Below, in pieces: positions 20,504 to 53,254 of a stretch of 64,000 bases of DNA. The translations under genes were made by a program, and so were the position numbers. The stretch comes from a bacterium (GTDB lineage: Bacteria; Verrucomicrobiota; Verrucomicrobiia; Chthoniobacterales; JAFAMB01). The DNA lies in the NCBI GenBank assembly GCA_046727075.1, contig JBKPBY010000053.1:13078-77077 (forward strand), given 5' to 3'. Numbering within the stretch: position 1 is the stretch's first letter; every line of letters starts with the position of its first letter. Below the pieces are notes generated by a model. That model was not told where the DNA came from and searched no databases. It saw only the letters and a list, made by a program, of their open reading frames with translations.

Positions 20504-20530
20504 TAGTCCGGCCTTGGCCGGACGAAGGCG
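20504..20530. repeat. REP-like element, perfect 27-mer copy 1
   Basis: TAGTCCGGCCTTGGCCGGACGAAGGCG, identical to 33765-33791 and 44680-44706. Internal stem GTCCGGCC/GGCCGGAC. Confidence 0.95.
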
Positions 20531-20534
20531 GGAT

Positions 20535-20924
20535 TCAGGATTGACTCAGGGCGTCACGAACAGCAGCCAGAAATTTCTCGTCGTTAAACGGCTTCATGAA
20601 GAATGCGACCGGGCCGATCTGCATGGCGGTAGCGCGCGCGGCCAAATCTTCGCGTGCGGTAATGACGATTACGCGCGGACGCGGTGAAAGGGCGCACATA
20701 CGCGCAAGGATTTCAAGACCAGTCACCTTTTTCATCCAAATGTCGGTTACCACGACTCGGACAGGGTGTGTGGCGGCATAAACCAAGAACTCTTCCGGCT
20801 TATTGAAGGCGCGGACCTTTAATCCATCCGAGATGAGCAAATACTCCATTGAGCGCAAGACGGACGGATCATCATCGACTAGGCAGACTTCCTTTGGTTG
20901 CGGCTCAACCGGCTCCCGTGACAT
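20535..20924 (-). CDS. single-domain response regulator (CheY-like receiver)
   Basis: VCLVDDDPSVLRSM ... VVVTDIWMKKVTG ... IVITA receiver pattern with no output domain. Start taken at ATG 20924. Confidence 0.85.
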   Translation of the reverse strand: MSREPVEPQPKEVCLVDDDPSVLRSMEYLLISDGLKVRAFNKPEEFLVYAATHPVRVVVTDIWMKKVTGLEILARMCALSPRPRVIVITAREDLAARATAMQIGPVAFFMKPFNDEKFLAAVRDALSQS

Positions 20925-21027
20925 ACAAATTAACCCGGCTTGGCAAAGCCACCGCGCGGCAGGCAGCATCTAACGGAGCGCGCCCAGGTCCGTGAAATTT
21001 GATGGTTCATGTTAGATGTCCGCCTGT

Positions 21028-23556: not shown

Positions 23557-23817
23557 GATCGTTCGTGAGGAAAAGGAAGTTTCGAGCAACTGGTCCGCCT
23601 GAAGGGGGCCGTGCACGGATGCGGTTCCGTTCTTCGAGAGTCCCCCAGCGAGCGGCGACGCTCGGTTCGGGTCTTCTCGCATGCCGGATGGTGCGCACAT
23701 TCCATTCTTCGAACCGAATTTTCAGATTTACGGAGGTTCCCAGCATAGATCAGACGCCGAAAAACGCGACACCAAAAACATGGTGGTCTCCGCTGGAACC
23801 TGGATAGACGAGGGGCA

Positions 23818-23889
<72 letters not shown>

Positions 23890-24070
23890 CGAGAAGTGAG
23901 ATGCGTAACTAAATGCAATCTCTGAAGTCTTCAACCGATTTCTCGTAGACGCCTTATCGTCCTCAACGGCTTACGGCGGTCTTCGTCGAAGAACCCTATT
24001 CACCAGCGCCGTACCAATACAGGCTTAGCGAGCAAAAGGGTGGCGGAATACTCGGACGAAAAGAAACCGC

Positions 24071-25551: not shown

Positions 25552-25677
25552 ATCTGGCCGCGTACCCGCGTCAACGTTCTTTGCGGCAACGCCACTACTC
25601 GCCCTAGGCTTTAATTGAATACCGACTTCGCCGCTAACGCTGAAGGTTGCATTTCAAGCACCCAATCCCATAAACAT

Positions 25678-25713
25678 AAGTCCTATCCGTCCTCTAAGTC
25701 CCATTCGTCCTAT
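25678..25713. repeat. tandem 18-mer doublet
   Basis: AAGTCCTATCCGTCCTCT (25678-25695) is followed directly by AAGTCCCATTCGTCCTAT (25696-25713). Confidence 0.85.
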
Positions 25714-25780
25714 TCTGAGCGTGACCCTGTCCAGAACCAGGCCCATCGTTCGTCGAAGGAATGAACCAATCAATGCGACT

Positions 25781-27987: not shown

Positions 27988-28057
27988 CGGGGCCGATTGT
28001 AGCACCCCGGCCCTGTTCTACTCAAGGCTGCGATTAGATTGCTATTTGTTCGGTATT

Positions 28058-28238
28058 TTTTCCTCTTTCTCCTACTCGTCCTCGAGGTGGCGGCCGCATC
28101 CGGCGGCCGCCGGACGATAAAGCGCGACCCTACCGATGACAGACCAAGGCCGAGCGTGGGGTGAGGCGAATCCGCCATTGGCGGATGAGTCTTTCGGTGC
28201 GCGTTCGAAAACGAGGACGAGCAAGAGGAAGAGGAAAA
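28058..28238. repeat. long-range inverted repeat with nested palindromes upstream of trmB
   Basis: 27-nt arms TTTTCCTCTTTCTCCTACTCGTCCTCG (28058-28084) and CGAGGACGAGCAAGAGGAAGAGGAAAA (28212-28238). Inner hairpins GGCGGCCGC/GCGGCCGCC (28089-28111) and AATCCGCCATTGGCGGATGAG (28169-28189). Confidence 0.75.
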
Positions 28239-28303
28239 GCCAGGCTTCCACACGATCTTGCGCTTTACTCCACGCTGTTTGCGATCAGGCTTACGATAAA
28301 CAT

Positions 28304-31974: not shown

Positions 31975-32148
31975 GGCCATTGTGTTAGAGCTTTTTTGAC
32001 GGGACGCTATAGCGCGGCACGCCTCTGCCGTCGGCACCTAAGACGTCTTAACGCGATCTCGAATGAGCGTAACGGCGCGTTGGGTATTGGCGGCAGGGCC
32101 GCCGACCCTGCAGCGTCGCGAAACGCCAAACGCCAAACGCCGAACTCT

Positions 32149-33666: not shown

Positions 33667-33736
33667 GGATTCCCTGTAGGGCGGCAGGCACTGCCGCCGA
33701 CATCTATCCGGTACCACTCCCTTGCACGTGCCTACA

Positions 33737-33791
33737 GCGCCAAACGCCAAAACCTCTCGCGCAGTAGTCCGGCCTTGGCCGGACGAAGGCG
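33737..33791. repeat. REP-like element copy 2 (extended)
   Basis: GCGCCAAACGCCAAAACCTCTCGCGCAG followed by the perfect 27-mer at 33765-33791. Confidence 0.95.
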
Positions 33792-33801
33792 TCAAATGCC
33801 T

Positions 33802-34665
33802 CTACGGCACAACTGCCCACACTTCGACGATCCGATTTTTGGCGAACTGCTGCTGATCAAACATATCAGTTCCTCCCATCGGGATCGGATACATAACATT
33901 CAGCACGCCGCACTTGTCTTTCAGGATCTGGGTCACTGTCTGAGCTCTTCCAAGCGATAGATCGATATTCCTTTGGTCGTTCCCTTGTTTGTCGGCGTAC
34001 CCTAGAACCACCAGTAATAACGTTGGATCCTCCAGAAATCTTCGAACGCGCTCTTGAGAAACCTGATTCTGAACGGAGGCAATATCTTGTGGGGGAAGAT
34101 TGGTGTTTGCTGTTGCGAACGAGATTACAACGAGACGCCCCATTCCCTTTGCCTTTTCTACAAATTGGTACACTCGGTCTTTCTGGGCTCGCGTATAGGT
34201 TGGCTGCATCTCAACTCGCCTAAGAATCTCTCGTTTTACCTGGTCAAAATCTTGTCCGGTGAGATCCAAATTTAGAGGCTCTACCTTAGAAAGCGGCGTT
34301 CCACTCGGCGCTGGCGTAGGCGTTGGCGTGGAAATGGGAGTAGGAATCGGAGTCGGTACTGGGGTTGATATCGGAGTTGGAGTCGGGGCGACGGTTGGTG
34401 TTGGCGTGGGCTCCGTTATTATGGAGGGCCGTCGGGGAGACGAAAAAAGAGTCCAGATGATTGCGGCGATCGCCAGCAGCAATACCGCCCCCACACATGC
34501 GAAAACTATCCAGAGATAGGATGGTTTTTCTTTCGGTCCAATTGTTTCAAGTTGGGATCCGCACTCCGGACAATTGAAATTCTTGGTAACGACAACGATC
34601 TTCTCGTTCCGATAGGCCAGCGTACAGCCTGAATAATTGGTACACTTACCGACAGTTTGGGCCAT
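33802..34665 (-). CDS. Zn-ribbon / single-TM / Pro-Thr linker / OmpA-MotB-like peptidoglycan-binding protein
   Basis: 287 aa. KCTNYSGC...CPECG zinc ribbon, TM helix LWIVFACVGAVLLLAIAAIIWTLF, linker PTPTPTVAPTPTPISTPVPTPIPTPISTPTPTPAP, and OmpA-like C-terminus VVLGYADKQGNDQRNIDLSLGRAQTV ... NRIVEVW. Confidence 0.7.
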   Translation of the reverse strand: MAQTVGKCTNYSGCTLAYRNEKIVVVTKNFNCPECGSQLETIGPKEKPSYLWIVFACVGAVLLLAIAAIIWTLFSSPRRPSIITEPTPTPTVAPTPTPISTPVPTPIPTPISTPTPTPAPSGTPLSKVEPLNLDLTGQDFDQVKREILRRVEMQPTYTRAQKDRVYQFVEKAKGMGRLVVISFATANTNLPPQDIASVQNQVSQERVRRFLEDPTLLLVVLGYADKQGNDQRNIDLSLGRAQTVTQILKDKCGVLNVMYPIPMGGTDMFDQQQFAKNRIVEVWAVVP

Positions 34666-34747: not shown

Positions 34748-34872
34748 TAGGCTGGCGTAGCACACGCAGGAGTCCGGCGATTGCCGGATGAAGCTCAGCC
34801 CTGCCGGCGATGTGTTTCGCTCCCGCAATCGGTAGGGCCGAGCTTCAGCTCGGCCTCCTGCGAGTACCGCCC

Positions 34873-36801
34873 TCAGGCGTGTTGTTTAGCTAAGACCGCG
34901 TAGATCGCGTCATGGATCTCGAGATTCTGGTTCCAATCGGGGACAACCAGGCTTCGCGAACGAAGTTGCAGCCGAGCCAGGTCGGCAATCGGTTCTTCAA
35001 AAATCTTTTCCAGGGCGCTCGGTGGCGCGTCTCCGAAGTCTCGGCAGAAGCTGGCGGGACCAACGCCGGGAAATAGCCGAACAATCAGGCCCAACGCCTG
35101 CCACCACAGCTCCGGAGGAACAACATGGGCTGCTCTGGCGCGCATCTCCGGGTCAAATGTGAGGCGATGTGGGCCGAGTGATTCGCTCCACCGTGGGTCG
35201 CGCTCGATGACATCCTGCAGTTGGGCCGGGAACGGAGCATCTTTCTCCGTAGAGATCTGCCGGGCCAGGCTCAATATCTCATCGAGAGCAATGGCCAGCG
35301 TATTCTCTCCGTTGACGAGAAGAATCCGCGTGGCAATTACGGCCAGAGAATACATGTCGCATGGCGAGGACAAAAGCGGTAACACCTCAAAATTAACCTG
35401 GTGGATCGGAGTTCCCGCGGCCTTTTCCAGAGCCTGCTGTTGTGTCTCCGAAAGCTCCTGCGGAACTGTCCTGAACCGTGTCTCTCCTGTAGCCAATGCC
35501 TGCGATTCATCGACCCTGCCAAAAAGATTGATCTGATGCGGCACCAGCGTGAACTGAATGTGCAGCAGGTCACTGGCGGCAATTTCCAGACGTTCGTCGG
35601 AAGCGATTGTCGCTTCGATACAAATTCCTTGCGGAGTCGGCGGCAACACTTTGCGAATGCGTATCGTAGCCTTTCCTTGTAACGGAACGCCCAGGTTGCG
35701 TGGCCGAAACACGGATGGGCTTGGCGATTCTGCCGGAAGAAAATAGCGAGCGCGACTGGTTTCCAGTGCCAGCGGGATTGCTCGGCTTGATTCGATTAAG
35801 TCGACGTTCGCTGTCCACAAACAAGGCAGTCCGGTTCCGGTTTCCGACAGCCTCACGCGGAAGCTAGCTGTGTTAAGCCCGAGAAACGGGAGCTGCTGTA
35901 AACGAATTGCGTTTCGGGTTTCGACGATCGTTTGAAGAATCAGGTTGAGTTTGAGATGCAAAACTTCAAGCAAGCGCGCGGCTTTACCGTTCCTTCCGGT
36001 AAACAGGTGGGCGCCTTCCTGGATTGCTTGATCAATGTCGGCGAGACGGGAATAGGCGGCTCCGAGAGGTATGCGGCCACCTCCGTTCATGTCGAAATGA
36101 ATGCCACCCCAGGATTTTCCGCCGAGCACATCTGCAAATTCGCTGAGCGACAGTGGAGAGAGCAATCGCGCAAACCATAGTCCGCCAGCGTTGAAGACTG
36201 ATGCCCGCGGGAAAGAATCGCTCAGTGTTCTTACACCGGGCGGAGTAGGAGCATCCGTGGTAGCTGCGAGAAAAATGGGAGCCTTGGTCTGCGGACCGGT
36301 CCACAGATAGCGGTGCAACGATTGGCTATATGCAGGTAAGCTGGCAGCAACCAGCGCTTCATCATCGGTACACAGGGAAAATTGCTGGTTTGATTCGGGG
36401 TCAACTGGCCGAACGATCGTGCCGGATTCCAGGAAAGCCGGATCACGACGATCCGTTTCGATTAAATTCGTGCGGCCGAGGCTTCGGAACATGGAAGTCC
36501 GTTGCGCCCATTTCTGGTCCAGAAACGCGTTGGTCAAAGGCTCTGACCGTGCGCGAAAGCTGGAGCGGACGCGATCGACATTTTGCACCCAGACCTCGAC
36601 CCAGATCTTTGGATCTTTCACACGGTCGACCAGGCAGCCAAGATAGACGGAAGCGTCGATCGTCTCACGTAACAGCAGAAAATGCGGTGTTTTTTCCGCC
36701 TGAACGACTAGGCAAAGAGCGAGAGTCGCGTCGCGATCTTCTGGCTGCAGTGGTACAGCGCGAAATCCTGGTGGCAACAACTCGTCCTCAGAACCCGTCA
36801 T
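34873..36801 (-). CDS. hypothetical 642-aa protein (orphan; kinase-C-lobe-like segment only)
   Basis: A long uninterrupted ORF whose amino-acid composition looks protein-like by eye. No catalytic motif recognised. SSPCDMYSLAVIATRILL ... VPPELWWQALGLIVRLF resembles Hanks-kinase subdomains IX-XI. Confidence 0.7.
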   Translation of the reverse strand: MTGSEDELLPPGFRAVPLQPEDRDATLALCLVVQAEKTPHFLLLRETIDASVYLGCLVDRVKDPKIWVEVWVQNVDRVRSSFRARSEPLTNAFLDQKWAQRTSMFRSLGRTNLIETDRRDPAFLESGTIVRPVDPESNQQFSLCTDDEALVAASLPAYSQSLHRYLWTGPQTKAPIFLAATTDAPTPPGVRTLSDSFPRASVFNAGGLWFARLLSPLSLSEFADVLGGKSWGGIHFDMNGGGRIPLGAAYSRLADIDQAIQEGAHLFTGRNGKAARLLEVLHLKLNLILQTIVETRNAIRLQQLPFLGLNTASFRVRLSETGTGLPCLWTANVDLIESSRAIPLALETSRARYFLPAESPSPSVFRPRNLGVPLQGKATIRIRKVLPPTPQGICIEATIASDERLEIAASDLLHIQFTLVPHQINLFGRVDESQALATGETRFRTVPQELSETQQQALEKAAGTPIHQVNFEVLPLLSSPCDMYSLAVIATRILLVNGENTLAIALDEILSLARQISTEKDAPFPAQLQDVIERDPRWSESLGPHRLTFDPEMRARAAHVVPPELWWQALGLIVRLFPGVGPASFCRDFGDAPPSALEKIFEEPIADLARLQLRSRSLVVPDWNQNLEIHDAIYAVLAKQHA

Positions 36802-36850
36802 CTACCCGAGCGTAACATCACGAATCCTATTTTGGCTAGCACGGAGGAGG

Positions 36851-36974
36851 GAACCGCAGATTTCACAGATTACGCAGATTTTATTTTGGTGGTCGCCTCC
36901 AACGATGCGGGCAAGTCCACGCGATAGACCTGAATATCAATAAAAATCTGTGTAATCCGCGAAATCTGCGGTTC
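36851..36974. repeat. MITE-like element: ~35-bp terminal inverted repeats around a 53-bp core
   Basis: GAACCGCAGATTTCACAGATTACGCAGATTTTATT (36851-36885) versus AATAAAAATCTGTGTAATCCGCGAAATCTGCGGTTC (36939-36974). Confidence 0.75.
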
Positions 36975-36989
36975 TTTCTTTCTGCTCCT

Positions 36990-37727
36990 CTACAACGCCG
37001 CGTTGACTTGCTGAATCGCTTGCTGGACCTGTTGATAGCTCGCTTGGAAGCCTTCCATCGTTTTTTTGTCAGAGAACGAAATGCCGGCCTCTTTGCCTGG
37101 CTTCCATTTTCCGGCGTTCTTTTCCAGATAATCGGTCACACCGAGCGCAGCGTCCGCCAGCTTTGTCAGAGCATCGGACCGAGCTGCTTGTTTCGTGATT
37201 GCGTTCCTTTCGATAAACAAGTTTGTCACTTGCGATGCCATATCGTCCGACAAGCCTGCAGCTTTCAACTGTGTCGTCATATTTGCTTGGAGGCCGTTGA
37301 GTACATCCCGCCTTTTGCCGGACGCATCCTTCAATGCTTCCGCTGCCTTCTTTGCGTTGGCGACATCCTCCTTTGTTTTAATTGCGGCCAACGGCTGTAC
37401 CACCTGCGCGTCGACAGTCGTTTCGAGCGGTTTCGCAGCGGCGTCTACATCGGCCAAGTTTTTCCCCGTCTCATTGAGAGCACGAGCAACTGGAGCCTCG
37501 TCCGGCGGCAATGAATCGGGATTTGCGCTCATCAAGTTCAAATAATCCGCTGGTCCTTTCGGTTTCGGTGTAGCGGTTGGAGTCGCTTGCGCTTGGGGAG
37601 GCGGTTGTTCACTCTTGTTGCAGGCGGAGAGCAACCCGAAGAGCGCAATCAGGCAAAGCGAAGAATAGAGACCGCACACCCAAGAAGCATTACGGCGTGG
37701 TTGAGAGGATGAGATCGCATTCGACAT
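36990..37727 (-). CDS. hypothetical alpha-helical lipoprotein
   Basis: Lipobox LLSAC after a hydrophobic segment. PQAQATPTATPKPKG linker, then an Ala/Lys/Gln-rich helical body. Start taken at ATG 37727. Confidence 0.6.
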   Translation of the reverse strand: MSNAISSSQPRRNASWVCGLYSSLCLIALFGLLSACNKSEQPPPQAQATPTATPKPKGPADYLNLMSANPDSLPPDEAPVARALNETGKNLADVDAAAKPLETTVDAQVVQPLAAIKTKEDVANAKKAAEALKDASGKRRDVLNGLQANMTTQLKAAGLSDDMASQVTNLFIERNAITKQAARSDALTKLADAALGVTDYLEKNAGKWKPGKEAGISFSDKKTMEGFQASYQQVQQAIQQVNAAL

Positions 37728-37824
37728 GTCGGTAGTTCTAGCGAGATTCGCGGGCACGTCTACGGCGATTTTCTCGCGAATCCCTGTTGAGACGCGAACT
37801 CGATGCAATGATAGTGCGAGCCAC

Positions 37825-38580
37825 ATGGTTCGTTCTATCGGTTTTGGGTTGTTGGCTTGCTTGCTTTGCGGTTGTGCCACGCGGGCGCTAACATCTGTCA
37901 AAGGAATACCCGGTCACTTCAGCACAGTAATTATCGATGCCGGTCACGGCGGCAAAGACAACGGAGGGCTCGGTGGACGACGCGGCATCGGCCTTGTTAG
38001 AGAAAAAGATGTAACGCTTAGCACGGCTAAGAGAGTTCGCGCGGAGCTGCAACACGCTGGCGTGCGCACGCTGATGATCCGCGACGATGACCGTTTTGTA
38101 GAGCTCGATGACCGGGTAGCTTTTGCGAATCGCCAAGGACCAAACGCGATTCTGGTCAGCATTCATTATGATGCCACCGGGGACCGCGGCGCGAACGGGG
38201 CAAAGACCTATTTCTGGAGAGCGGATAGCCACGGACTGGCAACGCGGATCCAGGAAAACCTGGTGGCCGAGACCGGCGAAACCAACCTCGGCGTTTTGCG
38301 CCGGCGCCTTCGACTGACTCGCAACCCGGAGATTCGATCGATCCTCTGTGAATGCGCGTATCTGACGAACCCCGGTGAGGCGCAGAAAGTGACGAACGAC
38401 GCCTACCAATCCAAAATTGCCACCGGTATCGCTAGGGGCATTCTCGAACAATATCGCCTGGGTGACGCAGGCATCGCCTCGGTCCCCGAACTCATTGCGC
38501 CCATGTCCAGAGCCTCCGACAAATACGTGAGCCGCCACACAACGCACCGCCGCAAGCACCACAAAAAAGTAAAAGCGTGA
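37825..38580 (+). CDS. N-acetylmuramoyl-L-alanine amidase (Amidase_3), lipoprotein
   Basis: Lipobox LLCGC. IIDAGHGGKDNGG, SIHYDA and ECAYLTNP motifs. Start taken at ATG 37825. Confidence 0.85.
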   Translation: MVRSIGFGLLACLLCGCATRALTSVKGIPGHFSTVIIDAGHGGKDNGGLGGRRGIGLVREKDVTLSTAKRVRAELQHAGVRTLMIRDDDRFVELDDRVAFANRQGPNAILVSIHYDATGDRGANGAKTYFWRADSHGLATRIQENLVAETGETNLGVLRRRLRLTRNPEIRSILCECAYLTNPGEAQKVTNDAYQSKIATGIARGILEQYRLGDAGIASVPELIAPMSRASDKYVSRHTTHRRKHHKKVKA

Positions 38581-38801
38581 GTGTTAGTGTGAGGTGAGAA
38601 CGAAGGGGGCGATCCGGCGACTGGTGAGACGGCAAAAAGAAATATGGAATCTAACAGAAAATCGCGAAGATTTTTTCTCGTCGGCAACCGAAAACTGAAA
38701 ACCGAAAACCGAAAACGGTGAACCGCGTGGCGAAGCCGCGCGCGCTTGACTCACACCCATACTCGCACTCGCACTGCGGGAGTGCTAGATTGGCCGCTTC
38801 A

Positions 38802-39833
38802 ATGCGAAAGAGAGACGTCACGATTCACGATGTCGCCGCTCAATCCGGAGTCTCCTACCAGACGGTCTCGCGTGTGATCAATGAGATGCCCGATGTGGCT
38901 GATGCAACGCGCCAGCGGGTGACCAAAGTTCTCGATCGACTCGGCTACCGTCCCAACCTGACCGCACGGCACCTGGTGAGCCGGCGTTCAACGGTGATCG
39001 GAGTGGTTACGTTTGCCACCGGTCTCTATGGCCCGTCCCAGATTGTGCTCAATGTCGAACGAGCGGCCAGAGCAAATGGCTACAACATCATGTTCGCTGG
39101 AATACCCGAGGAAAACGTCGAAGAAATTCACCGGGCGGTCGATACCCTTTGCGCCCATCGAGTCGCCGGAATATTGATGCATCTCCCCTTGGAAATTGAT
39201 CTGCGTCGTCTTCGCGACGTCTGTAAGAGTTTGCCTGTGGTGGCCATCGACTCCGATTTCGGTTTCGAAGCGCCTTCCGTTTTTGTTCAACAGGAAAAAG
39301 CTTCGCGGATGCTGACGAAGCACCTGATCGATCTCGGCCATAAACGGATTGCTTATCTCCGAGCGCCGGTTGTCTGGCGGGCATCCCGACTGCGATATCA
39401 GGGTTGGCTTAAAGCGCTGAAAGCCGCGCGCCTTAAACCGGGGCCTTGCGCCGAAGGTGACTGGTCTTCCAAGGGCGGATTCGAAGCAACGCTTGAGCTG
39501 ATCAGACACCACAAGAACCGATTCACTGCACTTATGGTCGCCAACGATCAAATGGCGCTCGGCGCGATCCGAGCTTTTGAGGAAAACGGTCTCCAGGTGC
39601 CGAGAGATGTGTCGATTGTCGGTTTCGATGATATTCCCGAGGCGGCGTTTTTCCGGCCCCCACTGACCACTGTCAAACAGGATTTCGACGCGGTCGGCAA
39701 ACTCGGCGTACGCTGCTTAATCGACCAATTTAAAAACGAAACGGCGCTCTCAACCCAGACACACACGGTGGAACCAATTTTTTTCGAACGCGCCAGCACC
39801 GCGAAGCCGCGGCGGAAGAACGTATCGGCGTGA
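38802..39833 (+). CDS. LacI-family transcriptional regulator
   Basis: VTIHDVAAQSGVSYQTVSRVIN HTH plus a periplasmic-binding-protein-like core. The last six codons lie inside the left arm of the 39815-39900 inverted repeat. Confidence 0.9.
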   Translation: MRKRDVTIHDVAAQSGVSYQTVSRVINEMPDVADATRQRVTKVLDRLGYRPNLTARHLVSRRSTVIGVVTFATGLYGPSQIVLNVERAARANGYNIMFAGIPEENVEEIHRAVDTLCAHRVAGILMHLPLEIDLRRLRDVCKSLPVVAIDSDFGFEAPSVFVQQEKASRMLTKHLIDLGHKRIAYLRAPVVWRASRLRYQGWLKALKAARLKPGPCAEGDWSSKGGFEATLELIRHHKNRFTALMVANDQMALGAIRAFEENGLQVPRDVSIVGFDDIPEAAFFRPPLTTVKQDFDAVGKLGVRCLIDQFKNETALSTQTHTVEPIFFERASTAKPRRKNVSA

Positions 39834-39900
39834 CGGCGTGTCGGCGTACCAGCGAATACGCCCCCAGAAGCCGACACGCCGTCGCGCCGATACGTTCTTC
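39815..39900. terminator. 31-bp-arm hairpin between convergent genes (bidirectional terminator candidate)
   Basis: GAAGAACGTATCGGCGTGACGGCGTGTCGGC (39815-39845) versus GCCGACACGCCGTCGCGCCGATACGTTCTTC (39870-39900): 30 of 31 complementary, with a 24-nt loop. Confidence 0.65.
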
Positions 39901-41329
39901 AACTTCTCCCGTTGGCCACTGCTACTGCGGCGGAAGCAACACGCTTTCGTCCGGCAAGTTCTTCTCCAGCGTTTGGTGGCAGGCTGGCGAATCCGAAATA
40001 TGACAGAAGCGAAATCACCCCAATTACGACGAAAGCGGGCAAGAAATCACCAGTTGCCAGCGTCTGGCTGCCTCGTAGCGCCATCGATGATTGAAGAATG
40101 AATGCGGCTATGGTTATACCGAGGCTTAGCGATAGTTGCTGGAAAACACTTGTCAGCGTTGTCGCCTGGCTCATCTCTGGTTGTTCGACCTCCGCAACGC
40201 TGATCGCATTAATACATGTGAACTGTAACGAACGAAAGAAACCACCGATAAAAAACACGGTGAGAATCCATAGATGAGGAGTTGTGATTGTGAAGCTCGC
40301 CGGCGCAACAGCCAAAATCGCTGTGACGATCGCGTTTATCGCTAACACCCGTCCGAATCCGAGTTGTCGTAGAATCGGGCTGGCAGTGAATTTCATTAAC
40401 ATCGCGCCGACCGCGCCAACAAAGGTCATCAAGCCGGATTGTAAAGGACTCAGTCCAAATCCAAGCTGCAACAAGAGAGGCCAGAGCAGCGGTGTTGCGC
40501 CAACGCCGATTCGAAAAAAGCTGCCGCCGATCACGCCGGCCTTGAAGGTAGGAAGCCGGAATAGCCGGAGATCCAGGATAGGATTCGGGGTTCGTGCCGC
40601 GTGCATCGCGTAGAGCGCGACACCTACAAAGCCGATGGCAAACAACGCGCAGACCGCCCAGACCGGAAGCGCGTTCCCTTCCATTGTTGCAGACGCCCAT
40701 ACAAGTGCGGATAATCCAACACCCGACAAAATAAACCCGATCAAATCGAACGGCGGCGGATCTTCCTCAACGATCTCCGGAATCAAAAGCGTTGCCAGCA
40801 CAAGACCAAGCACCGCGACGGGAATGTTAATCCAGAATATCCAACGCCACGAAAAGTAGGTTGTAATAAAGCCGCCCACTGGCGGACCGACCATCGGACC
40901 AATTAGTGCTGGTATTGTCAGCCACGCGAGAGCGTCAACAAATTCCGATCGCGGTACGCTGCGCAGAATGACGAGGCGTCCGACCGGCATCATCATTGCG
41001 CCACCGATTCCTTGGAGAGCTCTGGCCGCGACTAGCATATGCAACGACGTGGCGAACCCGCAGAAAATTGATCCTAGCGCAAATATAAGGATCGCGAGCC
41101 TGAAAATAATTCGCGCGCCGAACCGGTCCGCGAACCATCCAGAGGCCGGGATGAAGACCGCCAAAGCTAACAAATATGAAGCGAGCGCGAGCTTGAGTTG
41201 GATTGGGCTCTCGTGCAGTTCATGTCCGATCGCCGGTAACGCCGTAGAGAGGACCGTGGCGTCCAGATTCTCCATAAACAATGCGCATGCGACGATCAGC
41301 GGTAAGAGAATCCGAAGAGGGAGAGCCAT
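39899..41329 (-). CDS. MFS transporter, DHA2 (EmrB/QacA-like, 14-TMS) type
   Basis: 476 aa. LDATVLSTALPAIGHEL and FADRFGAR motifs. Confidence 0.85.
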   Translation of the reverse strand: MALPLRILLPLIVACALFMENLDATVLSTALPAIGHELHESPIQLKLALASYLLALAVFIPASGWFADRFGARIIFRLAILIFALGSIFCGFATSLHMLVAARALQGIGGAMMMPVGRLVILRSVPRSEFVDALAWLTIPALIGPMVGPPVGGFITTYFSWRWIFWINIPVAVLGLVLATLLIPEIVEEDPPPFDLIGFILSGVGLSALVWASATMEGNALPVWAVCALFAIGFVGVALYAMHAARTPNPILDLRLFRLPTFKAGVIGGSFFRIGVGATPLLWPLLLQLGFGLSPLQSGLMTFVGAVGAMLMKFTASPILRQLGFGRVLAINAIVTAILAVAPASFTITTPHLWILTVFFIGGFFRSLQFTCINAISVAEVEQPEMSQATTLTSVFQQLSLSLGITIAAFILQSSMALRGSQTLATGDFLPAFVVIGVISLLSYFGFASLPPNAGEELAGRKRVASAAVAVANGRS

Positions 41330-41330
41330 T

Positions 41331-41458
41331 AGTGAGTGTGAGTGCGAGTGTGAGTCTTAGTTTTAGTGGTGGAATTAGATTTAGAGTTAGAGGGCACCAT
41401 TTCATAACCAGCACTAGCACTATCATTAGCACGAATACTCCCACTCACACCCGCACTC
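41331..41458. repeat. structured spacer between the two MFS genes (GAGTG-word inverted repeat)
   Basis: AGTGAGTGTGAGTGCGAGTGTGAGT (41331-41355) versus ACTCCCACTCACACCCGCACTC (41437-41458). The right arm covers the stop and last codons (RVRV) of the upstream MFS gene. Confidence 0.7.
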
Positions 41459-42668
41459 TTTTGTCCAGGTTCGGCAGGAAGGCGGTGAGCAATCCGATTA
41501 ACGGCAAGAACGAGCAGACTGAGTAAACGAAATCGATACTTGTCCAATCCGCAAGCCTGCCCAGCGCGGCCGATCCAATTCCGGCCATGCCGAATGCGGT
41601 TCCGAAAAAGATACCGGCGATCAATCCAGTTTTGCCCGGCACAAGCTCCTGCGCGTAAACGATGATGGCCGAAAAAGCGGACGCGAGGATCACTCCAATT
41701 ATCACCACAAGAACTCCAGTCCAGAAAAGGTCTGCGTACGGCAACGCTAGAGTAAACGGCGCTACGCCCAGGATCGATGCCCAGATCACATATTTACGCC
41801 CAATCCTGTCTCCAATCGGTCCTCCAATAATTGTACCGGCAGCGACAGCGAACAAAAACAGGAACAGATAAATCTGCGCTGTCTGGATGCCGAGATGAAA
41901 TTTGTTAATCAGGTAGAAAGTGAAGTAGTTGGAGAGGCTGACCAGGTAAAAAAATTTGGAGAAGATAAGCGCGATCAAAATCGCCAGCGAAAAGACGATC
42001 CTCTGCTTCGATAACAGCGCCTGGCCGGACTTACGTTTTGCGCTCGATTTGGTCGGGATTCTATGAAGGTTTTCGCCGTACCACTTTCCGACGATCGAAA
42101 GGATGATAATTGCGACCAGGGCAACCACGGAAAACCAGGCGATACTTGGTTGTCCTCTGGGCACGATGATAAGCGCAGCCAATAATGGCCCGGCCGAAGA
42201 GCCGGCGTTCCCACCGACCTGAAAAATCGACTGGGCGAGTCCGTGCTTACCTCCTGAGGCCATGCGAGCCAGACGCGATGCTTCGGGATGAAAGATTGAC
42301 GAGCCCAGGCCCACCAATGCGGCAGAAACAAGAATGGTTGGGAAACTGCCTGCCACCGAAAGTAGAACCAGGCCGATCAGCGTGAATCCCATCCCGATTG
42401 CCAAAGAATAAGGTTTAGGTCGGTGATCGGTGTAGAGCCCGACAAATGGCTGAAAAAGCGAAGCGGTGCACTGAAACGTCAGAGTGATCAGGCCGATCTG
42501 TGTAAAGTTCAGATGAAACGAGTTCTTCAGGACTGGATATATCGCCGGAATCAACGACTGAATCGTGTCGTTAAGCAGGTGCGAAAAACTGATTGCCAAG
42601 AGAATAGCGAATACGGTGTTCTCGGCTCTATTTTGATGTTCGACTGTGTCCTGAAATTCCGTCTGCAT
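41445..42668 (-). CDS. MFS transporter, Fsr (fosmidomycin-resistance)-like
   Basis: 407 aa. SFSHLLNDTIQSLIPAIYPVLK and GLYTDHRPKPYSL are typical of the Fsr subfamily. Confidence 0.8.
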   Translation of the reverse strand: MQTEFQDTVEHQNRAENTVFAILLAISFSHLLNDTIQSLIPAIYPVLKNSFHLNFTQIGLITLTFQCTASLFQPFVGLYTDHRPKPYSLAIGMGFTLIGLVLLSVAGSFPTILVSAALVGLGSSIFHPEASRLARMASGGKHGLAQSIFQVGGNAGSSAGPLLAALIIVPRGQPSIAWFSVVALVAIIILSIVGKWYGENLHRIPTKSSAKRKSGQALLSKQRIVFSLAILIALIFSKFFYLVSLSNYFTFYLINKFHLGIQTAQIYLFLFLFAVAAGTIIGGPIGDRIGRKYVIWASILGVAPFTLALPYADLFWTGVLVVIIGVILASAFSAIIVYAQELVPGKTGLIAGIFFGTAFGMAGIGSAALGRLADWTSIDFVYSVCSFLPLIGLLTAFLPNLDKRVRV

Positions 42669-43009
42669 GGATCTGGCCGCTGTACATCGGCGGCCTTCCG
42701 CGCCATCAGTACAGGCCCCTCTCCCGGGGAATCCCGTTTTCTAAAATACCCGGGCCGATCTCCTCCACAAGAGCCCCATACCAGGACAAAACGTAGTTGT
42801 TCTATCAGAATTCGTTTGGCTTTGGACGTTCCCGCCGTCACAGAATGGCCGGGAGTTTTTAGCCCAGAACTTCGGCCTTGTGTTCGGTTTGTGTCGAAGA
42901 GCGCCGCCGAGCGCTTCACGAACCGACGTGTCCGCCATAGCTGTGGCGAAGGCGGAAAACCGATAACGGAAGACCGATAACCGTTAACCGCGGCGCTGAA
43001 AGCGCCGCG

Positions 43010-44398
43010 CTAGATCTGCCAGTCCAAAGCACTCTCCGCGACCTCCATGACCGATACGTGCGGACGTTTTGCATGTCGGATCGCAAGCATGCCGCCCATG
43101 ACATTGCTGATATGTGGGAATCCTTCCCCTTCCAATAAGCTCGTAGCGATTGAGCTTCGATACCCACTCCCGCAGACAACCACAATTGACGACTGGCGAG
43201 GCAGTTTTCCAATCTGTCGCAATATTTGCGGAAGCGCGATATGAATAGCTCCTTCCAGAGGATCGGCGTTCCATTCTTGCGCAGTACGAACATCCAGAAC
43301 CACCGAACGCAGGCGGTTGTTACCGGCCGCCAACAAATCCTGAGCTCCGAGCTGCGTAATCTGCAGTGTTTCTTCAAGATCATCAGCGAGAAGAAATCCT
43401 GCGAACTGATCGAACCCAATTCGCGCTAGCTCCAATTTAGCTTGTTGTGCTTCGGTATTGTGATCGACAACCAACAGGATCGGTAAATCGCCGTTTATAA
43501 AGAAACCGCACCACACCGCAAAAGAAGGACTAGCAACCCCAATGTTCACGCTTCCTGCCGCGTGACCTTCGCCGAACAGTGCTGCCGCGCGTACATCGAG
43601 AATGCTCGCACCATCTTCTCGCAATGATCGAAACCTCTCCAAATTAAGGTGGGTGACCCTACCGGTGAATGCTGGCGCACCTTGCAGATTTATTGTGACC
43701 GATCGGGCAAAATAGGAAGGTCGCTCCGGTAGATTTGTTACCATAGCGGAGACGAAGGCTATCCGATCCGTGAACTGGAGTGCCCAGTTCGTCGCGGATT
43801 CCTGGCCAATAGTTGTGAACGGCGCTGAAGAAATTTGGCGACCGCAAAGGGAACCAGCTCCGTGTGCAGGATAGACTTTTACATCGGGCGGGAGCTTGAG
43901 CAGCTTCTGGAAAAGAGAATCATGAAGCATCCCTGCCAGTTGATCCGCGGTCATCTCGCTATCACACAAATCCGGCCGTCCGACATCGCCTGCAAACAGC
44001 GTGTCACCCGAAAAAAGAGCAACTGCACGATTCCCCTCATACAAACAGAAACAGACACTGTCGGGCGAATGCCCCGGCGTCTCGATAACTTCCAAATAAG
44101 AATCGCCGATTACGATTCGATCGCCTTCCTGAATATCGCGGTGATCGAATTCAGCCGGAGCCTTTGCTGAAATCAAGATTGGCGCGCCTGACCTGCTTGC
44201 CAGCTCGGCGTGCCCCGCTACGAAATCTGCGTGCGGATGAGTCAACAGGATCGCGCGAAGCGTGAGTCCGTTCTTTTCCAAATAATTCAAATAGCCATCA
44301 ACGCACCTTTCAGGATCGATGATGACTGCGTCAGCACCTGCTGAAACAACGTACGACGCTTGAGCAAGCCCAGGAACAAAAAAGCGCTCGATACGCAT
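43010..44398 (-). CDS. MBL-fold persulfide-dioxygenase-like domain fused to rhodanese domains
   Basis: LLTHPHADFVAGH metal motif and C-terminal rhodanese active-site loop VVVCGSGYRSS. Start taken at ATG 44398. Confidence 0.8.
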   Translation of the reverse strand: MRIERFFVPGLAQASYVVSAGADAVIIDPERCVDGYLNYLEKNGLTLRAILLTHPHADFVAGHAELASRSGAPILISAKAPAEFDHRDIQEGDRIVIGDSYLEVIETPGHSPDSVCFCLYEGNRAVALFSGDTLFAGDVGRPDLCDSEMTADQLAGMLHDSLFQKLLKLPPDVKVYPAHGAGSLCGRQISSAPFTTIGQESATNWALQFTDRIAFVSAMVTNLPERPSYFARSVTINLQGAPAFTGRVTHLNLERFRSLREDGASILDVRAAALFGEGHAAGSVNIGVASPSFAVWCGFFINGDLPILLVVDHNTEAQQAKLELARIGFDQFAGFLLADDLEETLQITQLGAQDLLAAGNNRLRSVVLDVRTAQEWNADPLEGAIHIALPQILRQIGKLPRQSSIVVVCGSGYRSSIATSLLEGEGFPHISNVMGGMLAIRHAKRPHVSVMEVAESALDWQI

Positions 44399-44520
44399 GG
44401 CTGAAGAATACAGGAACCAGGAGTCAGGAGCCAGGGGCAAACGCAGAGTACGCCGAGGACGAGTGCGAGAGGTGAGAAGTGAGAGGTGAGAGAGCGAGAC
44501 GGCGAAGGGGCTGGGACCAG

Positions 44521-44572
44521 CGCAAGCCGCGATTCAAAATAGCCTGGGGCGAAGCGACAGCGTAGCCCTAGG
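44521..44572. repeat. one-armed, reverse-oriented copy of the 51791-51867 element
   Basis: CGCAAGCCGCGATTCAAAATAGCC+TGGGGCGAAGCGACAGCGTAGCCCTAGG aligns with the reverse complement of 51815-51867, with a few mismatches. Confidence 0.8.
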
Positions 44573-44650: not shown

Positions 44651-44717
44651 CATTGGCGAACGCGGAACCTGTCGCGCCGTAGTCCGGCCTTGGCCGGACG
44701 AAGGCGGACGCCAAACG
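44651..44717. repeat. REP-like element copy 3 (full length)
   Basis: CATTGGCGAACGCGGAACCTGTCGCGCCG, then the perfect 27-mer (44680-44706), then GACGCCAAACG. Confidence 0.95.
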
Positions 44718-49517: not shown

Positions 49518-49558
49518 CGCTGTAGGGCGGCGTTCGCCGCTTTCGTATCGGCGTGTGA

Positions 49559-49620
49559 GCGTGACGGCGTATCGGCGTTTTTGGAAATCGAGCGCTCGAT
49601 CACGCCGTTACGCCGACACG
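49559..49620. terminator. nested hairpin between convergent mrdA and the LysR gene
   Basis: GCGTGACGGCGTATCGGCG (49559-49577) pairs with CGCCGTTACGCCGACACG (49603-49620), 16 of 18. The perfect palindrome ATCGAGCGCTCGAT (49587-49600) sits in the loop. Confidence 0.55.
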
Positions 49621-50483
49621 TCTCTACCCATCTCGTCCATCAGCGCATTCAATGCCGCTGACCGCCACCCTCGGCGCCAGATCAACATCACTTTCGCTTT
49701 CGCAATTGCCGATGGCAGCCTGCAAACGCTCACATCGTTCAGTGCCCGCAACGCCTGAAGTACAGATCGCGGAACAAGGGCCACTCCGGTTCCGGCCGCG
49801 ACACAAGCAACAATCGCGTGATAGGACGCAAACTCCAGAACCCGCTCGGGTACGATCTTTCCCTGATAAAGCCAGTTCTCCAACACGCGCCGATAAGCGC
49901 AGCCAGACGAGAATGCGATGATGGTTCGTTGCCCGATCTCCTGAGCTTTCGCCGTTTTCGGCAAATTCTTCGGCCCGATTAGAACAAGCTCTTCATCAAA
50001 TGCCGGTCGCATCTCGAGTTGATCCGTGATGAACGGTTGGGCGACGAACGCGGCTTCAATTTCGAAATCAAGTACCTTCCCAATCAGCGCGTCGGTTGTG
50101 CCTGTCACAAGATCGACTTGTACCTCGGGATGATCCCGATGGAACCGTGACAGGACCGGCGGGAGACCTGTCGCCGCAACGCTTTCGATTGTGCCCATCC
50201 GAAAAACTCCATGCGGTCTCCCGTTTCGTAACGCCGCCTCGGCCTCGGTGGAAAGACGAAGCAAACGCTCGGCATAACCCAGAAGCAACTTGCCTTCGGG
50301 CGAGAGTGTCAGTTTGCGTTTCCGGCGATGGAACAGTTCGACGCCTAAACGCTCTTCCAGCTGTTTAACCCGGGTCGTTACACTCGATTGAACTCGGTTC
50401 AATCGCGCAGCGGCTTTTGTGATACCACCATGTTCGGCCACCGCTCGAAAGATCTGAAGCGCTTCCAAATCGAGCGTTCTCAT
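49608..50483 (-). CDS. LysR-family transcriptional regulator
   Basis: 291 aa. LEALQIFRAVAEHGGITKAAARLNRVQSSVTTRVKQLE HTH. Divergent from the MFS gene. Confidence 0.9.
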   Translation of the reverse strand: MRTLDLEALQIFRAVAEHGGITKAAARLNRVQSSVTTRVKQLEERLGVELFHRRKRKLTLSPEGKLLLGYAERLLRLSTEAEAALRNGRPHGVFRMGTIESVAATGLPPVLSRFHRDHPEVQVDLVTGTTDALIGKVLDFEIEAAFVAQPFITDQLEMRPAFDEELVLIGPKNLPKTAKAQEIGQRTIIAFSSGCAYRRVLENWLYQGKIVPERVLEFASYHAIVACVAAGTGVALVPRSVLQALRALNDVSVCRLPSAIAKAKVMLIWRRGWRSAALNALMDEMGRDVSA

Positions 50484-50520
50484 AACGAGAACTATTCATC
50501 TCAAATATTCATTTTTCAAG

Positions 50521-51819
50521 ATGTATGTGCGGGCTGAGTATTCGCGGGTGACTCAAACCTCAAAATGGGACACGCCACCGGGTGACACCGCAACCGCGCT
50601 AACAGCCCGTGTCGCGCCGGCATGCCCAACGAAGCCACGACGGAGTTGGAAACCTTGGCGAAGGCGGAATCCAGTTTTTGGCGCTATCGCTGGCCTGATC
50701 GCACTGGCTGCAGCGATGGGGATCGGCCGTTTCGCGTTTACACCGGTGCTGCCAATGATGCAGGCCGATGCCGGTGTCACCATCGCCGCCGGCGCTTGGT
50801 TGGCTTCGGCGAATTACATCGGTTATTTTATTGGCTCGCTTTCCGCACTGGTTCTGCGGGTCCAGCCCGCGACAGCAATCCGTACCGGTCTTGCAGTAAT
50901 CGGCATCAGCACGTTGGGGATGGGATTCCAGCATGATGTCGCGTTTTGGGCCCTGCTGCGTGCGCTAGCCGGAATTGGAAGCGCTCTGGTTTTGATCTTT
51001 GTTTTCGCGTGGAGCGCTGATCAGTTCGCTCATCACCGGCATCATTGGTTCAGTGGTATTGTTTTCGCAGGAACCGGAGTCGGAGTTGCCATTTCCGGTG
51101 GACTCTGCCTCTGGCTGGGGCGGGCGAATGCTAACTCCGATACCGCCTGGATTCTCCTCGGAATCCTCTCTAGTGCCTTCGCCATTATCGTCTGGTTCGC
51201 GTTCGGCACAGATGGCGCTTCGAAAACAGTCCCGGAATCTGGAGGAACACTGTGGAGCCTCGAATCGCTACGGCTCATCGGATGTTATGGAGTATTCGGC
51301 TACGGTTATATCATCCCGGCCACATTCCTGCCTGTTATGGCGCGTGCGATCATTCCTGATCCCGCACTTTTTGGTTGGGCATGGCCGATTTTTGGTTCCG
51401 CGGCTGTGATATCCACTTTCTTAACCGCACGGTTCGCCCGCCGGTTCACTCATCGCACTATTTGGATTGGCGCCCATTTTGTCATGGCTGTAGGAATCTT
51501 TCTCCCGGCGCTTTTGCCCACGCTTTCCGCTATCCTGATCGCGGCCATCCTGGTTGGAGGCACATTCATGGTCGTTCCAATGGCGGCGATGCAGGAAGCG
51601 CGCTCGATTGCCGGCGCAAAACATTCAGCAGTCCTAATTGCTGCGATGACTTCCGCATTCGCACTAGGCCAGATTATCGGCCCGATTACCGTCGGTTGGC
51701 TGGTCGGCCCCCAAGGCACCAACCTCTCGGCCTCTCTCTATATTGCCGGCGGACTCTTAGTTTTTTCGGCCCTCGTCCTGATCAAGGGGCGAAAGCCGCG
51801 AATCAAAATAGCCTCCTAG
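50521..51819 (+). CDS. MFS transporter, YbfB/YjiJ-like (start codon uncertain)
   Basis: GIGRFAFTPVLPMM motif and 12 TM helices. The first ~50 codons are Arg-rich and contain a REP half-site (CTTGGCGAAGGCGGA), so the true start may be downstream of ATG 50521. Confidence 0.8.
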   Translation: MYVRAEYSRVTQTSKWDTPPGDTATALTARVAPACPTKPRRSWKPWRRRNPVFGAIAGLIALAAAMGIGRFAFTPVLPMMQADAGVTIAAGAWLASANYIGYFIGSLSALVLRVQPATAIRTGLAVIGISTLGMGFQHDVAFWALLRALAGIGSALVLIFVFAWSADQFAHHRHHWFSGIVFAGTGVGVAISGGLCLWLGRANANSDTAWILLGILSSAFAIIVWFAFGTDGASKTVPESGGTLWSLESLRLIGCYGVFGYGYIIPATFLPVMARAIIPDPALFGWAWPIFGSAAVISTFLTARFARRFTHRTIWIGAHFVMAVGIFLPALLPTLSAILIAAILVGGTFMVVPMAAMQEARSIAGAKHSAVLIAAMTSAFALGQIIGPITVGWLVGPQGTNLSASLYIAGGLLVFSALVLIKGRKPRIKIAS

Positions 51820-51867
51820 GGCTACGCTTTCGCTTCGCCCTCTAGGCTATTTTGATTCGCGGCTTCC
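51791..51867. repeat. 23-bp-arm hairpin enclosing the MFS stop codon
   Basis: GAAAGCCGCGAATCAAAATAGCC (51791-51813) versus GGCTATTTTGATTCGCGGCTTCC (51845-51867), 22 of 23 complementary. The TAG stop at 51817-51819 lies in the loop. Confidence 0.85.
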
Positions 51868-51908
51868 GCCGCTTGCTGACCCCTGGCACCCACACTCATC
51901 GCTCCTCC

Positions 51909-51979
51909 GCGCCAAACGCGAAACGCCAGAACCTGTCGGGCCGTAGGCTTGGCGAAGGCGGACGCCGAACGCCAAACGC
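51909..51979. repeat. REP-like element, short variant, forward
   Basis: GCGCCAAACGCGAAACGCCAGAACCTGTCGGGCCGTAGGCTTGGCGAAGGCGGACGCCGAACGCCAAACGC. It lacks the inner TCCGGCC/CGGAC stem. Confidence 0.9.
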
Positions 51980-52099
51980 ACTTGTGACTTGCAATGATCT
52001 AGTGTACTACTGCCCCCAACCCGTAGAGAATAGGATGTAGGCTATTCCGCTCCCCCCCACGATTTTTCTTGAACAAACCGAGCTTGACCGAGCTTCATC

Positions 52100-53191
52100 A
52101 TGTTTTCACGAATCCCTTTCCATCGAGTTAATTGGCTGATTAGTTCATTCCTCATAGGCACGTTGTTTCTTTCGATTACCACTGTGCCTGTCTATCTCTG
52201 GTTCTACGGACTCGATTGGTTCCAGGTGGTTCTGTTCTTTGTGATGTTCTGTACGGTTGGTTTTTCGGTCACAGTCGGCTATCACCGGCTTTTTTCGCAC
52301 TTGGCGTTCCAAGCGCATTGGTCGGTTCGATTGTTCACCTTAATATTGGGCGCTGGAGCATTCGAAAATTCGGTCTTGCTGTGGGCGTGCGAACATCGCA
52401 ATCACCACAAGCACGTCGACCACGAGGAAGACGATCCCTACTGTATCTCTAAGGGATTGTTCCACGCTCATATGGGGTGGTTAATGTTCAAGCTCGATCC
52501 ACCGCCACCGTTCGACAATGTCACCGATCTGCAGAAAGATTCGCTTGTGGTGTGGCAGAACCGCTACATCCATTGGATCGCAGCGATTGTTGCTTTCGTT
52601 CTGCCGACAGTCATCGGATATCTCTGGGGCGGCTGGGTATCAGCCCTGGGCGCGTTTCTGATCGCCGGCGTCGCTCGCGTGGTGATTCTTCAGCACTGCA
52701 CCTTCTGCATCAACTCACTCTGTCACTATATCGGGAAGCAACCGTACTCTTCCAAATGCAGCGCTCGCGACTCTTGGCTGATGGCCATCGTGACGTTTGG
52801 CGAAGGCTACCATAACTATCATCACGAATTTCAGCACGACTACCGTAATGGCGTAAAACCGTGGCAGATTGATCCCACCAAATGGATCATTTGGCTGCTC
52901 TCCAAAACCGGTTTAGTACGAAAACTTCGACGTGTTCCCACCGAAAAAATCCTGCTGGCTGAGCTTGCTGAGGCACGGCGCCAGCTTGAAGAAAGGCTGG
53001 CTCAACCCGGTCTGCCAGAGATCGCCGTTATCTACATTACAGATGCGTACCATCGCCTCGAAGTAGCGGCTCAAGAATGGGCCAGGCACAAAGCGCAACA
53101 ACTCGAGGTCACGCGCGAAATGCTTCTGGAGCTTCGCCGAGAAATCCGCTCCGCTCTCGCCCTAACCACCAAATTCCCGCTACACGCGTAA
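52100..53191 (+). CDS. acyl-CoA (delta-9-type) fatty-acid desaturase
   Basis: 363 aa. Three His boxes HRLFSH, HRNHHKH and HNYHHEF, four TM helices, and a ~90-aa helical C-terminal extension. Confidence 0.9.
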   Translation: MFSRIPFHRVNWLISSFLIGTLFLSITTVPVYLWFYGLDWFQVVLFFVMFCTVGFSVTVGYHRLFSHLAFQAHWSVRLFTLILGAGAFENSVLLWACEHRNHHKHVDHEEDDPYCISKGLFHAHMGWLMFKLDPPPPFDNVTDLQKDSLVVWQNRYIHWIAAIVAFVLPTVIGYLWGGWVSALGAFLIAGVARVVILQHCTFCINSLCHYIGKQPYSSKCSARDSWLMAIVTFGEGYHNYHHEFQHDYRNGVKPWQIDPTKWIIWLLSKTGLVRKLRRVPTEKILLAELAEARRQLEERLAQPGLPEIAVIYITDAYHRLEVAAQEWARHKAQQLEVTREMLLELRREIRSALALTTKFPLHA

Positions 53192-53254
53192 CGCTTGGCG
53201 TTTCGTGTCCGCCTTCGCTAAGCCTACGGCGCGACAGGTTTTGGCGTTTCGCGC
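53186..53254. repeat. REP-like element, short variant, inverted
   Basis: A 47-nt core GTCCGCCTTCGCTAAGCCTACGGCGCGACAGGTTTTGGCGTTTCGCG matches the reverse complement of 51909-51979 with 3 mismatches. It overlaps the desaturase stop codon. Confidence 0.9.

Follow-up and report, generated by a model that had tools for sequence, protein, structure and literature searches.

A dispersed GTAG-tagged hairpin repeat resembling REP elements in the intergenic DNA of soil Chthoniobacterales

Repeat copies between the genes of the window

The stretch analysed here (hereafter the window) comprises 64,000 nucleotides (nt) of contig JBKPBY010000053.1, from a member of the Chthoniobacterales (Verrucomicrobiota), with ~54% G+C and ordinary housekeeping genes; homologues of its fatty-acid desaturase are labelled Chthoniobacterales or Chthoniobacteraceae. 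Between the genes lies a short hairpin-forming repeat, here called the GTAG/CGAAG family, which looks like a new family within the known GTAG-tagged repetitive extragenic palindromic (REP) elements, with no transposase tied to it. The 64-kb window holds six to seven members, all of them between open reading frames (ORFs), as the original prediction from this sequence had stated (Table 1). Convergent gene ends flank copies A, B and E, whereas copy C lies between divergent genes, and copies D and F (at 42927) between co-directional ones. Specifically, the neighbouring genes encode a pyridoxal-phosphate (PLP) decarboxylase and a response regulator at copy A, a methyltransferase and an OmpA-like protein at copy B, and a metallo-beta-lactamase (MBL)-rhodanese and an OPT transporter at copy C, where an exact look-up of the adjoining protein of 476 amino acids (aa) returned no record.

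The original prediction was centred on a perfect 27-mer, TAGTCCGGCCTTGGCCGGACGAAGGCG, which is indeed exact at 20504-20530, 33765-33791 and 44680-44706, always on the + strand; none of 100 dinucleotide-preserving shuffles matched it, even with up to three mismatches (<=3). This 27-mer is the core of a ~42-nt hairpin-forming intergenic repeat unit. In the window copies and in metagenome contigs, the unit begins with C(C/T)TG, a stem of 3 base pairs (bp), one bulged base and a 4-bp stem (CGCC), continues with G-U-A, an inner hairpin (G)UCCGGC-NNNN-GCCGGA(C) and G-A-A, and ends with GGCG and three bases that close a 7-bp bulged outer stem. GUA stands opposite GAA as a 3x3 internal loop, and the inner hairpin has 7 bp. 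The overall fold is the one that had been predicted, except at the apex, where we find a 7-bp stem with a CUUG tetraloop and not an 8-bp stem with a TT loop. CUUG is the apex loop in the window, and AGCU is the commonest among the metagenome matches listed (28/135). Copy C is closest to the family consensus, with a predicted fold of -29.8 kcal/mol as RNA and -15.3 kcal/mol as DNA (z -3.1); the 3' outer stem of copy B is truncated, and in copy A one extra C turns GTAG into CTAG.

Conservation across 82 unique copies extends from -12 to +29 (CCTG..CGCC G TAG .. CGAAGG CGG). TAG itself was fixed by the search pattern used to collect the copies, and the base before it, which the pattern left free, is G in 82% and A in 13% of them; short forms found through an independent pattern and the covariance model likewise bear G/ATAG. 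The wider flanks had also been described as conserved, and this was only partly borne out. Copies B, D and E have the upstream flank CGCCAAACGCCAAAACC, copy C has it only approximately and copy A lacks it, and the downstream flank GACGCCAAACG follows copies C and D and none of the others.

The short variants predicted at 51909-51979 and, inverted, at 53186-53254 are real (copies D and E), and the covariance model added a third, copy F, that the original prediction had missed. In the window, these short forms keep the outer stem, GTAG and CGAAG and carry 6 nt in place of the inner hairpin, and forms of the shape CCGTAG-N5-8-CGAAGG are also common among the metagenome loci. Copy D reads CCTGTCGGGCC-GTAG-GCTTGG-CGAAG-GCGGAC and lies inside an array of CGCCAAA heptamers (51910-51931, 51964-51979); copy E is also inside a heptamer array, and copy F, GTGTCCGCC-ATAG-CTGTGG-CGAAG-GCGGA, is followed by an array of AACCGAT (42957-42990). 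Copies D and E form an inverted pair 1.2 kb apart, with 62-nt arms that are 89% complementary. A transposase between them was considered and rejected, the gene there being the fatty-acid desaturase.

Table 1. Positions of the family copies and heptamer arrays in the window, and of the loci with a REP-associated transposase (RAYT) gene in other Chthoniobacterales.
Feature	Position	Strand	Model match	Bits	E	Remark
Long copy A	20491..20533	+	20487-20538	54.8	8.6e-12	exact 27-mer
Long copy B	33753..33794	+	33749-33799	46.2		exact 27-mer
Long copy C	44668..44709	+	44664-44714	64.3	3e-14	exact 27-mer
Short copy D	51932..51963	+	51928-51968	23.8	8.5e-4	
Short copy E	53207..53238	-	53202-53242	30.2	1.8e-5	
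Short copy F	42927..42956	+	42922-42962		0.011	DNA fold z -2.6
Decayed copy AGTCCGGCGATTGCCGGATGAA	34771..34792	+	partial	18.4	0.021	outer stem lost
Heptamer arrays	9780-9813, 9966-10025, 32117-32145, 38686-38725					window
Heptamer arrays	44411-44492, 53292-53325					window
Conserved RAYT gene with flanking REPs	L085 2640-3190; L135 725-1324; L136 9929-10529; L137 9922-10515					Chthoniobacterales

Two degenerate relatives had been proposed as well, and they fared differently. The one at 34771-34794 is a weak partial match to the model, yet we count it as a decayed member because a related contig has an intact long copy at the corresponding position. The hairpin at 28169-28189 was not detected by the covariance model at E<=10. 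It belongs to a 196-nt intergenic stretch (28050-28245; -99.7 kcal/mol, z -5.9) that is closed by a 27-nt pyrimidine/purine inverted repeat and also holds a TCCGGCGGCCGCCGGA hairpin.

Other structured repeats share the intergenic regions of family copies. Inverted copies of a 70-100 nt structured repeat (44502-44572 and 51783-51887) lie 40-90 nt upstream of copies C and D and match the Rfam family Acido-Lenti-1 below threshold, at 24.7 and 25.4 bits against a gathering score of 37. GTAG also heads two perfect hairpins with 8-bp stems, GTAG-GGCGGCAG-GCA-CTGCCGCC at 33676-33699, in the same intergenic region as copy B, and GTAG-GGCCGAGC-TTCA-GCTCGGCC at 34832-34856, in that of the decayed copy. 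These two are probably members of other REP families; other GTAG-headed hairpins are frequent too, both in the window and in the metagenome loci.

Distribution, pairing and turnover of the family

One Chthoniobacterales metagenome-assembled genome (MAG) has an exact 24-mer of the core five times, spread over four short contigs, and another MAG has it once. A degenerate core pattern was found on at least 120 metagenome contigs, nearly all from soil among the matches listed, and on contigs with other loop variants the proteins cluster with Chthoniobacterales/Verrucomicrobiota proteins. The covariance model, built from 78 distinct copies, gave 143 matches at E<=0.01 in 488 kb, with local densities of up to 8 in 12.6 kb (L028; L numbers are our handles for loci outside the window), 6 in 11.8 kb (L018) and 5 in 5.5 kb (L073). 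Five 20-kb loci from other Chthoniobacterales contained no copies, and the family is not universal in the order; a blastn search of a plasmid collection with the consensus returned no match. Orientation relative to neighbouring genes is close to random, with no strong bias: the left neighbour is co-directional with the copy in 36 cases vs 20, and the right neighbour in 30 vs 30. Four tandem paralogous genes full of 51-nt (17-residue) repeats occupy positions 43-7158 of L060. Each of the first three is followed by a family copy, which therefore duplicated along with the gene.

With regard to the fold, 92.8% of cells in the 78-sequence alignment are paired, compared with 88.6% in shuffles (0/500 reached the observed value), and shifting the stem partners lowered pairing to <50%. 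Pair 9:46 of the outer stem covaries (CG 27, UA 16, GC 10). Among model-found copies outside the search pattern, the inner stem has the compensatory alternatives UCCCGC/GCGGGA and GUCGCC/GGCGAC. G.U pairs number 50 and A.C pairs 5, and therefore it is the strand with GTAG that forms the fold, whether as RNA or as single-stranded DNA. What is under selection is single-strand pairing and not duplex sequence. The repeat thus has the properties claimed for it as a REP-like element: it bears the GTAG tag, further copies exist in related genomes and metagenomes, the copies lie between genes and not in coding sequence, and the stems covary. The original prediction had further argued that three perfect 27-mers imply recent spread or strong selection. 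Both apply, as can be seen from the history of copy A and from the keeping of one 24-25-mer across different MAGs.

At copy A, orthologs with the same flanks and an adjacent response regulator 92-94% identical to that of the window have different inner 16 nt, TCCCGCGACTTTTGGA in the relatives vs TCCGGCCTTGGCCGGA in the window. The differences are 8 in 16 inner positions vs about 8 in ~104 flank positions. The hairpin of copy A was therefore replaced by, or converted to, the current master sequence after the split from these relatives. Copy E has an empty counterpart in L128 (desaturase 96% identical, same downstream deacetylase gene), where the heptamer array runs uninterrupted; presence and absence differ by a precise 32-nt segment, (A)CCTGTCGCGCCGTAGGCTTAGCGAAGGCGGA. 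This filled/empty pair carries no target-site duplication, and the empty site has more heptamers, not fewer.

Further changes can be seen in L019, which aligns to window positions 34868-44435 at 82% identity. Its ortholog of copy F carries a 29-nt inverted family copy nested directly after ATAG-C, and such nested composites recur across unrelated contigs. A fixed nesting site GT^AG, suggested by L027 and L028, was rejected, because the L019 insert follows ATAG-C and that of L016 fits neither, leaving no rule. In L019 and L087 an intact long copy stands in place of the decayed copy at 34771, on the same side of a 642-aa gene. Copy B is found in the near-identical contigs L001 and L002 and has no counterpart in L019 or on that side in L087. 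Copies of the family are thus gained or lost precisely and leave no target duplication, they nest in one another and decay, and their inner hairpin can be exchanged for the master sequence.

The OmpA-like gene next to copy B and its promoter region (33802-34665) are inverted relative to L087 and to the 82% identical contig L019 (10988-11363), with both breakpoints inside repeat-bearing intergenic regions. A crossover within the palindromes was considered for this inversion and set aside, since the predicted GTAG..CTAC and CTTCG..CGAAG chimeras were not seen.

REP kinship, candidate mobilisation and competing readings

REPs are palindromes of 20-50 nt with GTAG in front, and in E. coli TnpAREP recognises them as folded single strands and cuts at CT, with GTAG being crucial (PMC8266576). 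The tag defines most REPs (PMC8266576, PMC3733652). Di Nocera et al. 2013 describe 24 GTAG families from 8 phyla, several of them in the verrucomicrobium O. terrae, and note G.T pairs, a predominance of single units in some families, a 3-bp motif opposite GTAG in others, T. roseum units inside small palindromes, and repeat-specific REPtrons where several GTAG families coexist (PMC3733652). Our literature search for REPs in Chthoniobacter returned nothing.

The closest known relatives within this super-family (PMC3733652) are GTAG-1/-2 (Pseudomonas), GTAG-17/-19/-20 of O. terrae and GTAG-23 of T. roseum, the O. terrae families having been compared by description and not by consensus sequence. 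The features in common are a GC-rich palindrome of 20-50 nt with GTAG at one side and G.T stem pairs, an intergenic position that is often downstream of genes, several families per genome and, in some, a predominance of singletons. The conserved 3-nt motif opposite GTAG in GTAG-1/-2 and the units inside small palindromes of GTAG-23 also recall the present family. Unlike the members of this super-family, however, our unit has GTAG facing CGAAG in a 3x3 internal loop, which is closed by an outer stem with a bulge, its short forms without a palindromic body are full members, its copies nest, and a subset lies inside 7-nt arrays.

The E. coli REPs and bacterial interspersed mosaic elements (BIMEs), with TnpAREP, constitute a group 2 REPtron (PMC8266576, PMC3479197). 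They share with our family a GTAG-preceded imperfect palindrome with an irregularity or bulge, which the E. coli enzyme needs. Recognition there is specific for one strand of folded single-stranded DNA, with CT cleavage near the hairpin, and a conserved CT is present here in the 5' CCTG. In contrast, the E. coli tnpA gene is flanked by the same REPs, in inverted BIME arrays, whereas our copies are mostly single and no cognate gene was found. REP doublets forming hairpins (REPINs; Bertels and Rainey 2011, as cited in PMC3733652) likewise include many near-identical master copies with recent within-lineage homogenisation or spread, but they are inverted doublets that move as a unit, and ours is a single two-tier hairpin. 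Finally, the subterminal hairpins of IS200/IS605 elements and their miniature derivatives have in common with the family a hairpin, a 5' tetranucleotide guide, the lack of target-site duplication and, if our reading of the family is right, a single-strand, strand-specific chemistry; they differ in that no element-encoded tnpA/tnpB lies here between two different ends and the unit has only 32-42 nt.

We favour, at a probability of roughly 0.6, the view that the copies are a family of non-autonomous GTAG-tagged REP-type elements specific to soil Chthoniobacterales; RAYT-type mobilisation is what we infer from the GTAG tag, the strand-specific fold, the lack of target duplication and the fact that RAYTs occur in the order. 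An HUH/Y1 REP-associated transposase (RAYT/TnpAREP) would recognise the copies in their folded single-stranded DNA form and would cut and rejoin them. GTAG would be the motif that is recognised or that guides the enzyme, and the CT conserved in the 5' CCTG would be a candidate cleavage site. We propose that under such recognition only copies keeping the core would propagate, and the 27-mer would stay identical for that reason. Where copies are transcribed, the stable hairpin is probably also an RNA 3'-end or stability element.

The link to a RAYT gene that the original prediction had called for was not established. We searched every six-frame ORF in 664 kb of copy-bearing loci with phmmer and jackhmmer. 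The relatives of the one hit, an ORF in L085, are named RayT, and one of them comes from a Chthoniobacterales MAG. In the order, the RAYT gene occurs in two housekeeping contexts, glgB/pseudopilin/xseA/ruvB (L135, L137) and RF-1/enolase (L136). A RAYT adjoining the copies was rejected as an explanation, that single match lying 2.1 kb from a copy, and the RAYT lineage found was rejected as the cognate enzyme since its flanks bear another REP that is seen nowhere else in the data. The two sequences that flank these genes, GTAGAGGCGCTTGTGCCAAGCGCCT and GTAGCGGTGCTTGTGTCAAGCACCG, occurred only beside the RAYT gene, with no dispersed copies in the data examined; GTAGAGGCGCTTGTGCCAAGCGCCT does not occur in the window, and the present family is unrelated to the RAYT-flanking REP in sequence. 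No Y1/HUH gene flanked by copies of the GTAG/CGAAG family was found, other RAYT paralogues not having been searched for. It is possible that a cognate RAYT exists, because repeat-specific REPtrons are reported where families coexist (PMC3733652).

Several observations weigh against the reading of RAYT-mobilised REPs. The 664 kb held a single Y1 transposase ORF (Pfam Y1_Tnp; L085 2729-3190), and 2.1 kb separate it from the closest copy. Doublets of a different REP, GTAGAGGCGCTTGTGCCAAGCGCCT, bracket the one RAYT lineage that was found (L085, L135-L138) on both sides, and the GTAG/CGAAG family is absent from the 20 kb around two of those genes. The copies are mostly singletons and not the inverted doublets typical of REPINs and BIMEs, inverted pairs being restricted to L005 (arms 244 nt apart) and D/E. 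GTAG is internal to the outer stem and not a free end, and the short forms do without the palindromic body altogether. A deletion between flanking heptamers could also account for the presence/absence difference at copy E, and the invariance of the inner stem in the 78-sequence alignment carries no meaning, because that stem was imposed by the search pattern.

Among the alternatives, the strongest, though we consider it unlikely, is that the unit is a structured RNA module with a function at the RNA level, such as 3'-end protection, termination or a protein-binding loop (tandem sheared G.A around U.A), and that it multiplies by recombination or duplication and not by a transposase. The invariant and unpaired GUA/GAA and the G.U excess over A.C (50 vs 5) would fit, as would the CUUG/UUCG-like tetraloops with which short forms cap the internal loop, the core conserved across species of Chthoniobacterales and the mild excess of copies sense and downstream of a gene (36 vs 20); many GTAG REPs are also argued to act as RNA (PMC3733652). 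However, G.T wobble fits single-stranded DNA equally well, right neighbours are evenly divided (30 vs 30), and some copies, such as copy C, lie in divergent promoter regions. Between close relatives, orthologous copies are found decayed, replaced or missing, unlike a required cis-element. No Rfam family matches the unit: Rfam 15 at gathering score returned only a tRNA-Val for the whole window, and a permissive scan of copies C and D gave nothing on the element.

We regard as doubtful a second alternative, in which the family is not driven by RAYT at all. It would be an order-wide, self-nesting two-tier hairpin that homes into the loops of other copies and into 7-nt arrays, or helps to generate those arrays, by an undescribed mechanism, or that serves an RNA-binding partner, while the order's own RAYT serves only the REPs beside its gene. 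Very improbable, in our judgement, is a MITE (a miniature transposable element with inverted repeats) moved by a DDE transposase, or a double-stranded DNA site (TCCGGC-N4-GCCGGA) for a regulator or nucleoid protein. The core is a perfect palindrome to which a dimeric protein could bind, and the copies are short and dispersed, but there are no terminal inverted repeats beyond the hairpin, the filled/empty pair has no target-site duplication, short forms without the palindrome keep the rest, and covariation with the G.U asymmetry points to selection on single-strand pairing. Plain Rho-independent terminators that share their sequence by chance are hardly credible, in that the GC-rich hairpin and the convergent settings of A, B and E would suit them, but no copy is followed by a T-run (the sequence continues GGCGGACGCC), copy C lies between divergent genes, gene-relative orientation is near random, and a terminator has no place for a conserved unpaired GTAG/CGAAG, for nesting or for precise indels.

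The Chthoniobacterales, most of them uncultured, rank among the most abundant bacteria of soil. Between their genes lie mobile hairpin modules and short tandem arrays, which change more quickly than the surrounding genes, and the family, with its covariance model, offers a marker for strain-level variation and an explanation for assembly breaks. It also allows one to ask whether a domesticated RAYT can serve REPs other than those beside its own gene. The general picture of REPs is unchanged; what is unusual here is the two-tier hairpin with facing GTAG/CGAAG, the short forms as full members, the nesting, the connection with heptamer arrays and the fact that the REPtron of the lineage itself does not match the family.

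Tandem arrays and further intergenic repeats

Five of the six copies in the window abut 7-nt tandem arrays. By a strict test, period-7 flanks occur in only 6/113 copies (random 28-mers, 0.27%), while a 7-mer common to both sides is present in 24/112 copies vs 11 in controls, with period 7 alone being enriched. The association with heptamer arrays is real but limited to a subset of copies, and we rejected such arrays as a general flank of the family on this count.

Many intergenic regions of the window contain 3-5 tandem copies of a 7-nt unit that differs by place (TTCCGTC, CGCCAAA, AACCGAA, GAGAGGT and others), and related metagenome contigs have intergenic heptamer arrays of yet other units. 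Intergenic heptamer repeats are known from other bacterial groups (PMC4679880, PMC4692102); for Verrucomicrobia, our literature search found nothing. Arrays of 8-nt units, GCCGACAC/GCCGATAC, lie at 16818-16859, 39815-39900 and 49544-49627, and the same octamers are also found in L006. At 39815-39900, between convergent genes, two such arrays lie opposite one another and form 31-nt arms with 97% complementarity. A further intergenic inverted repeat, of 32 nt and 91% complementary, is built of CAGATTTCA-like 9-mers at 36851-36882 and 36943-36974.

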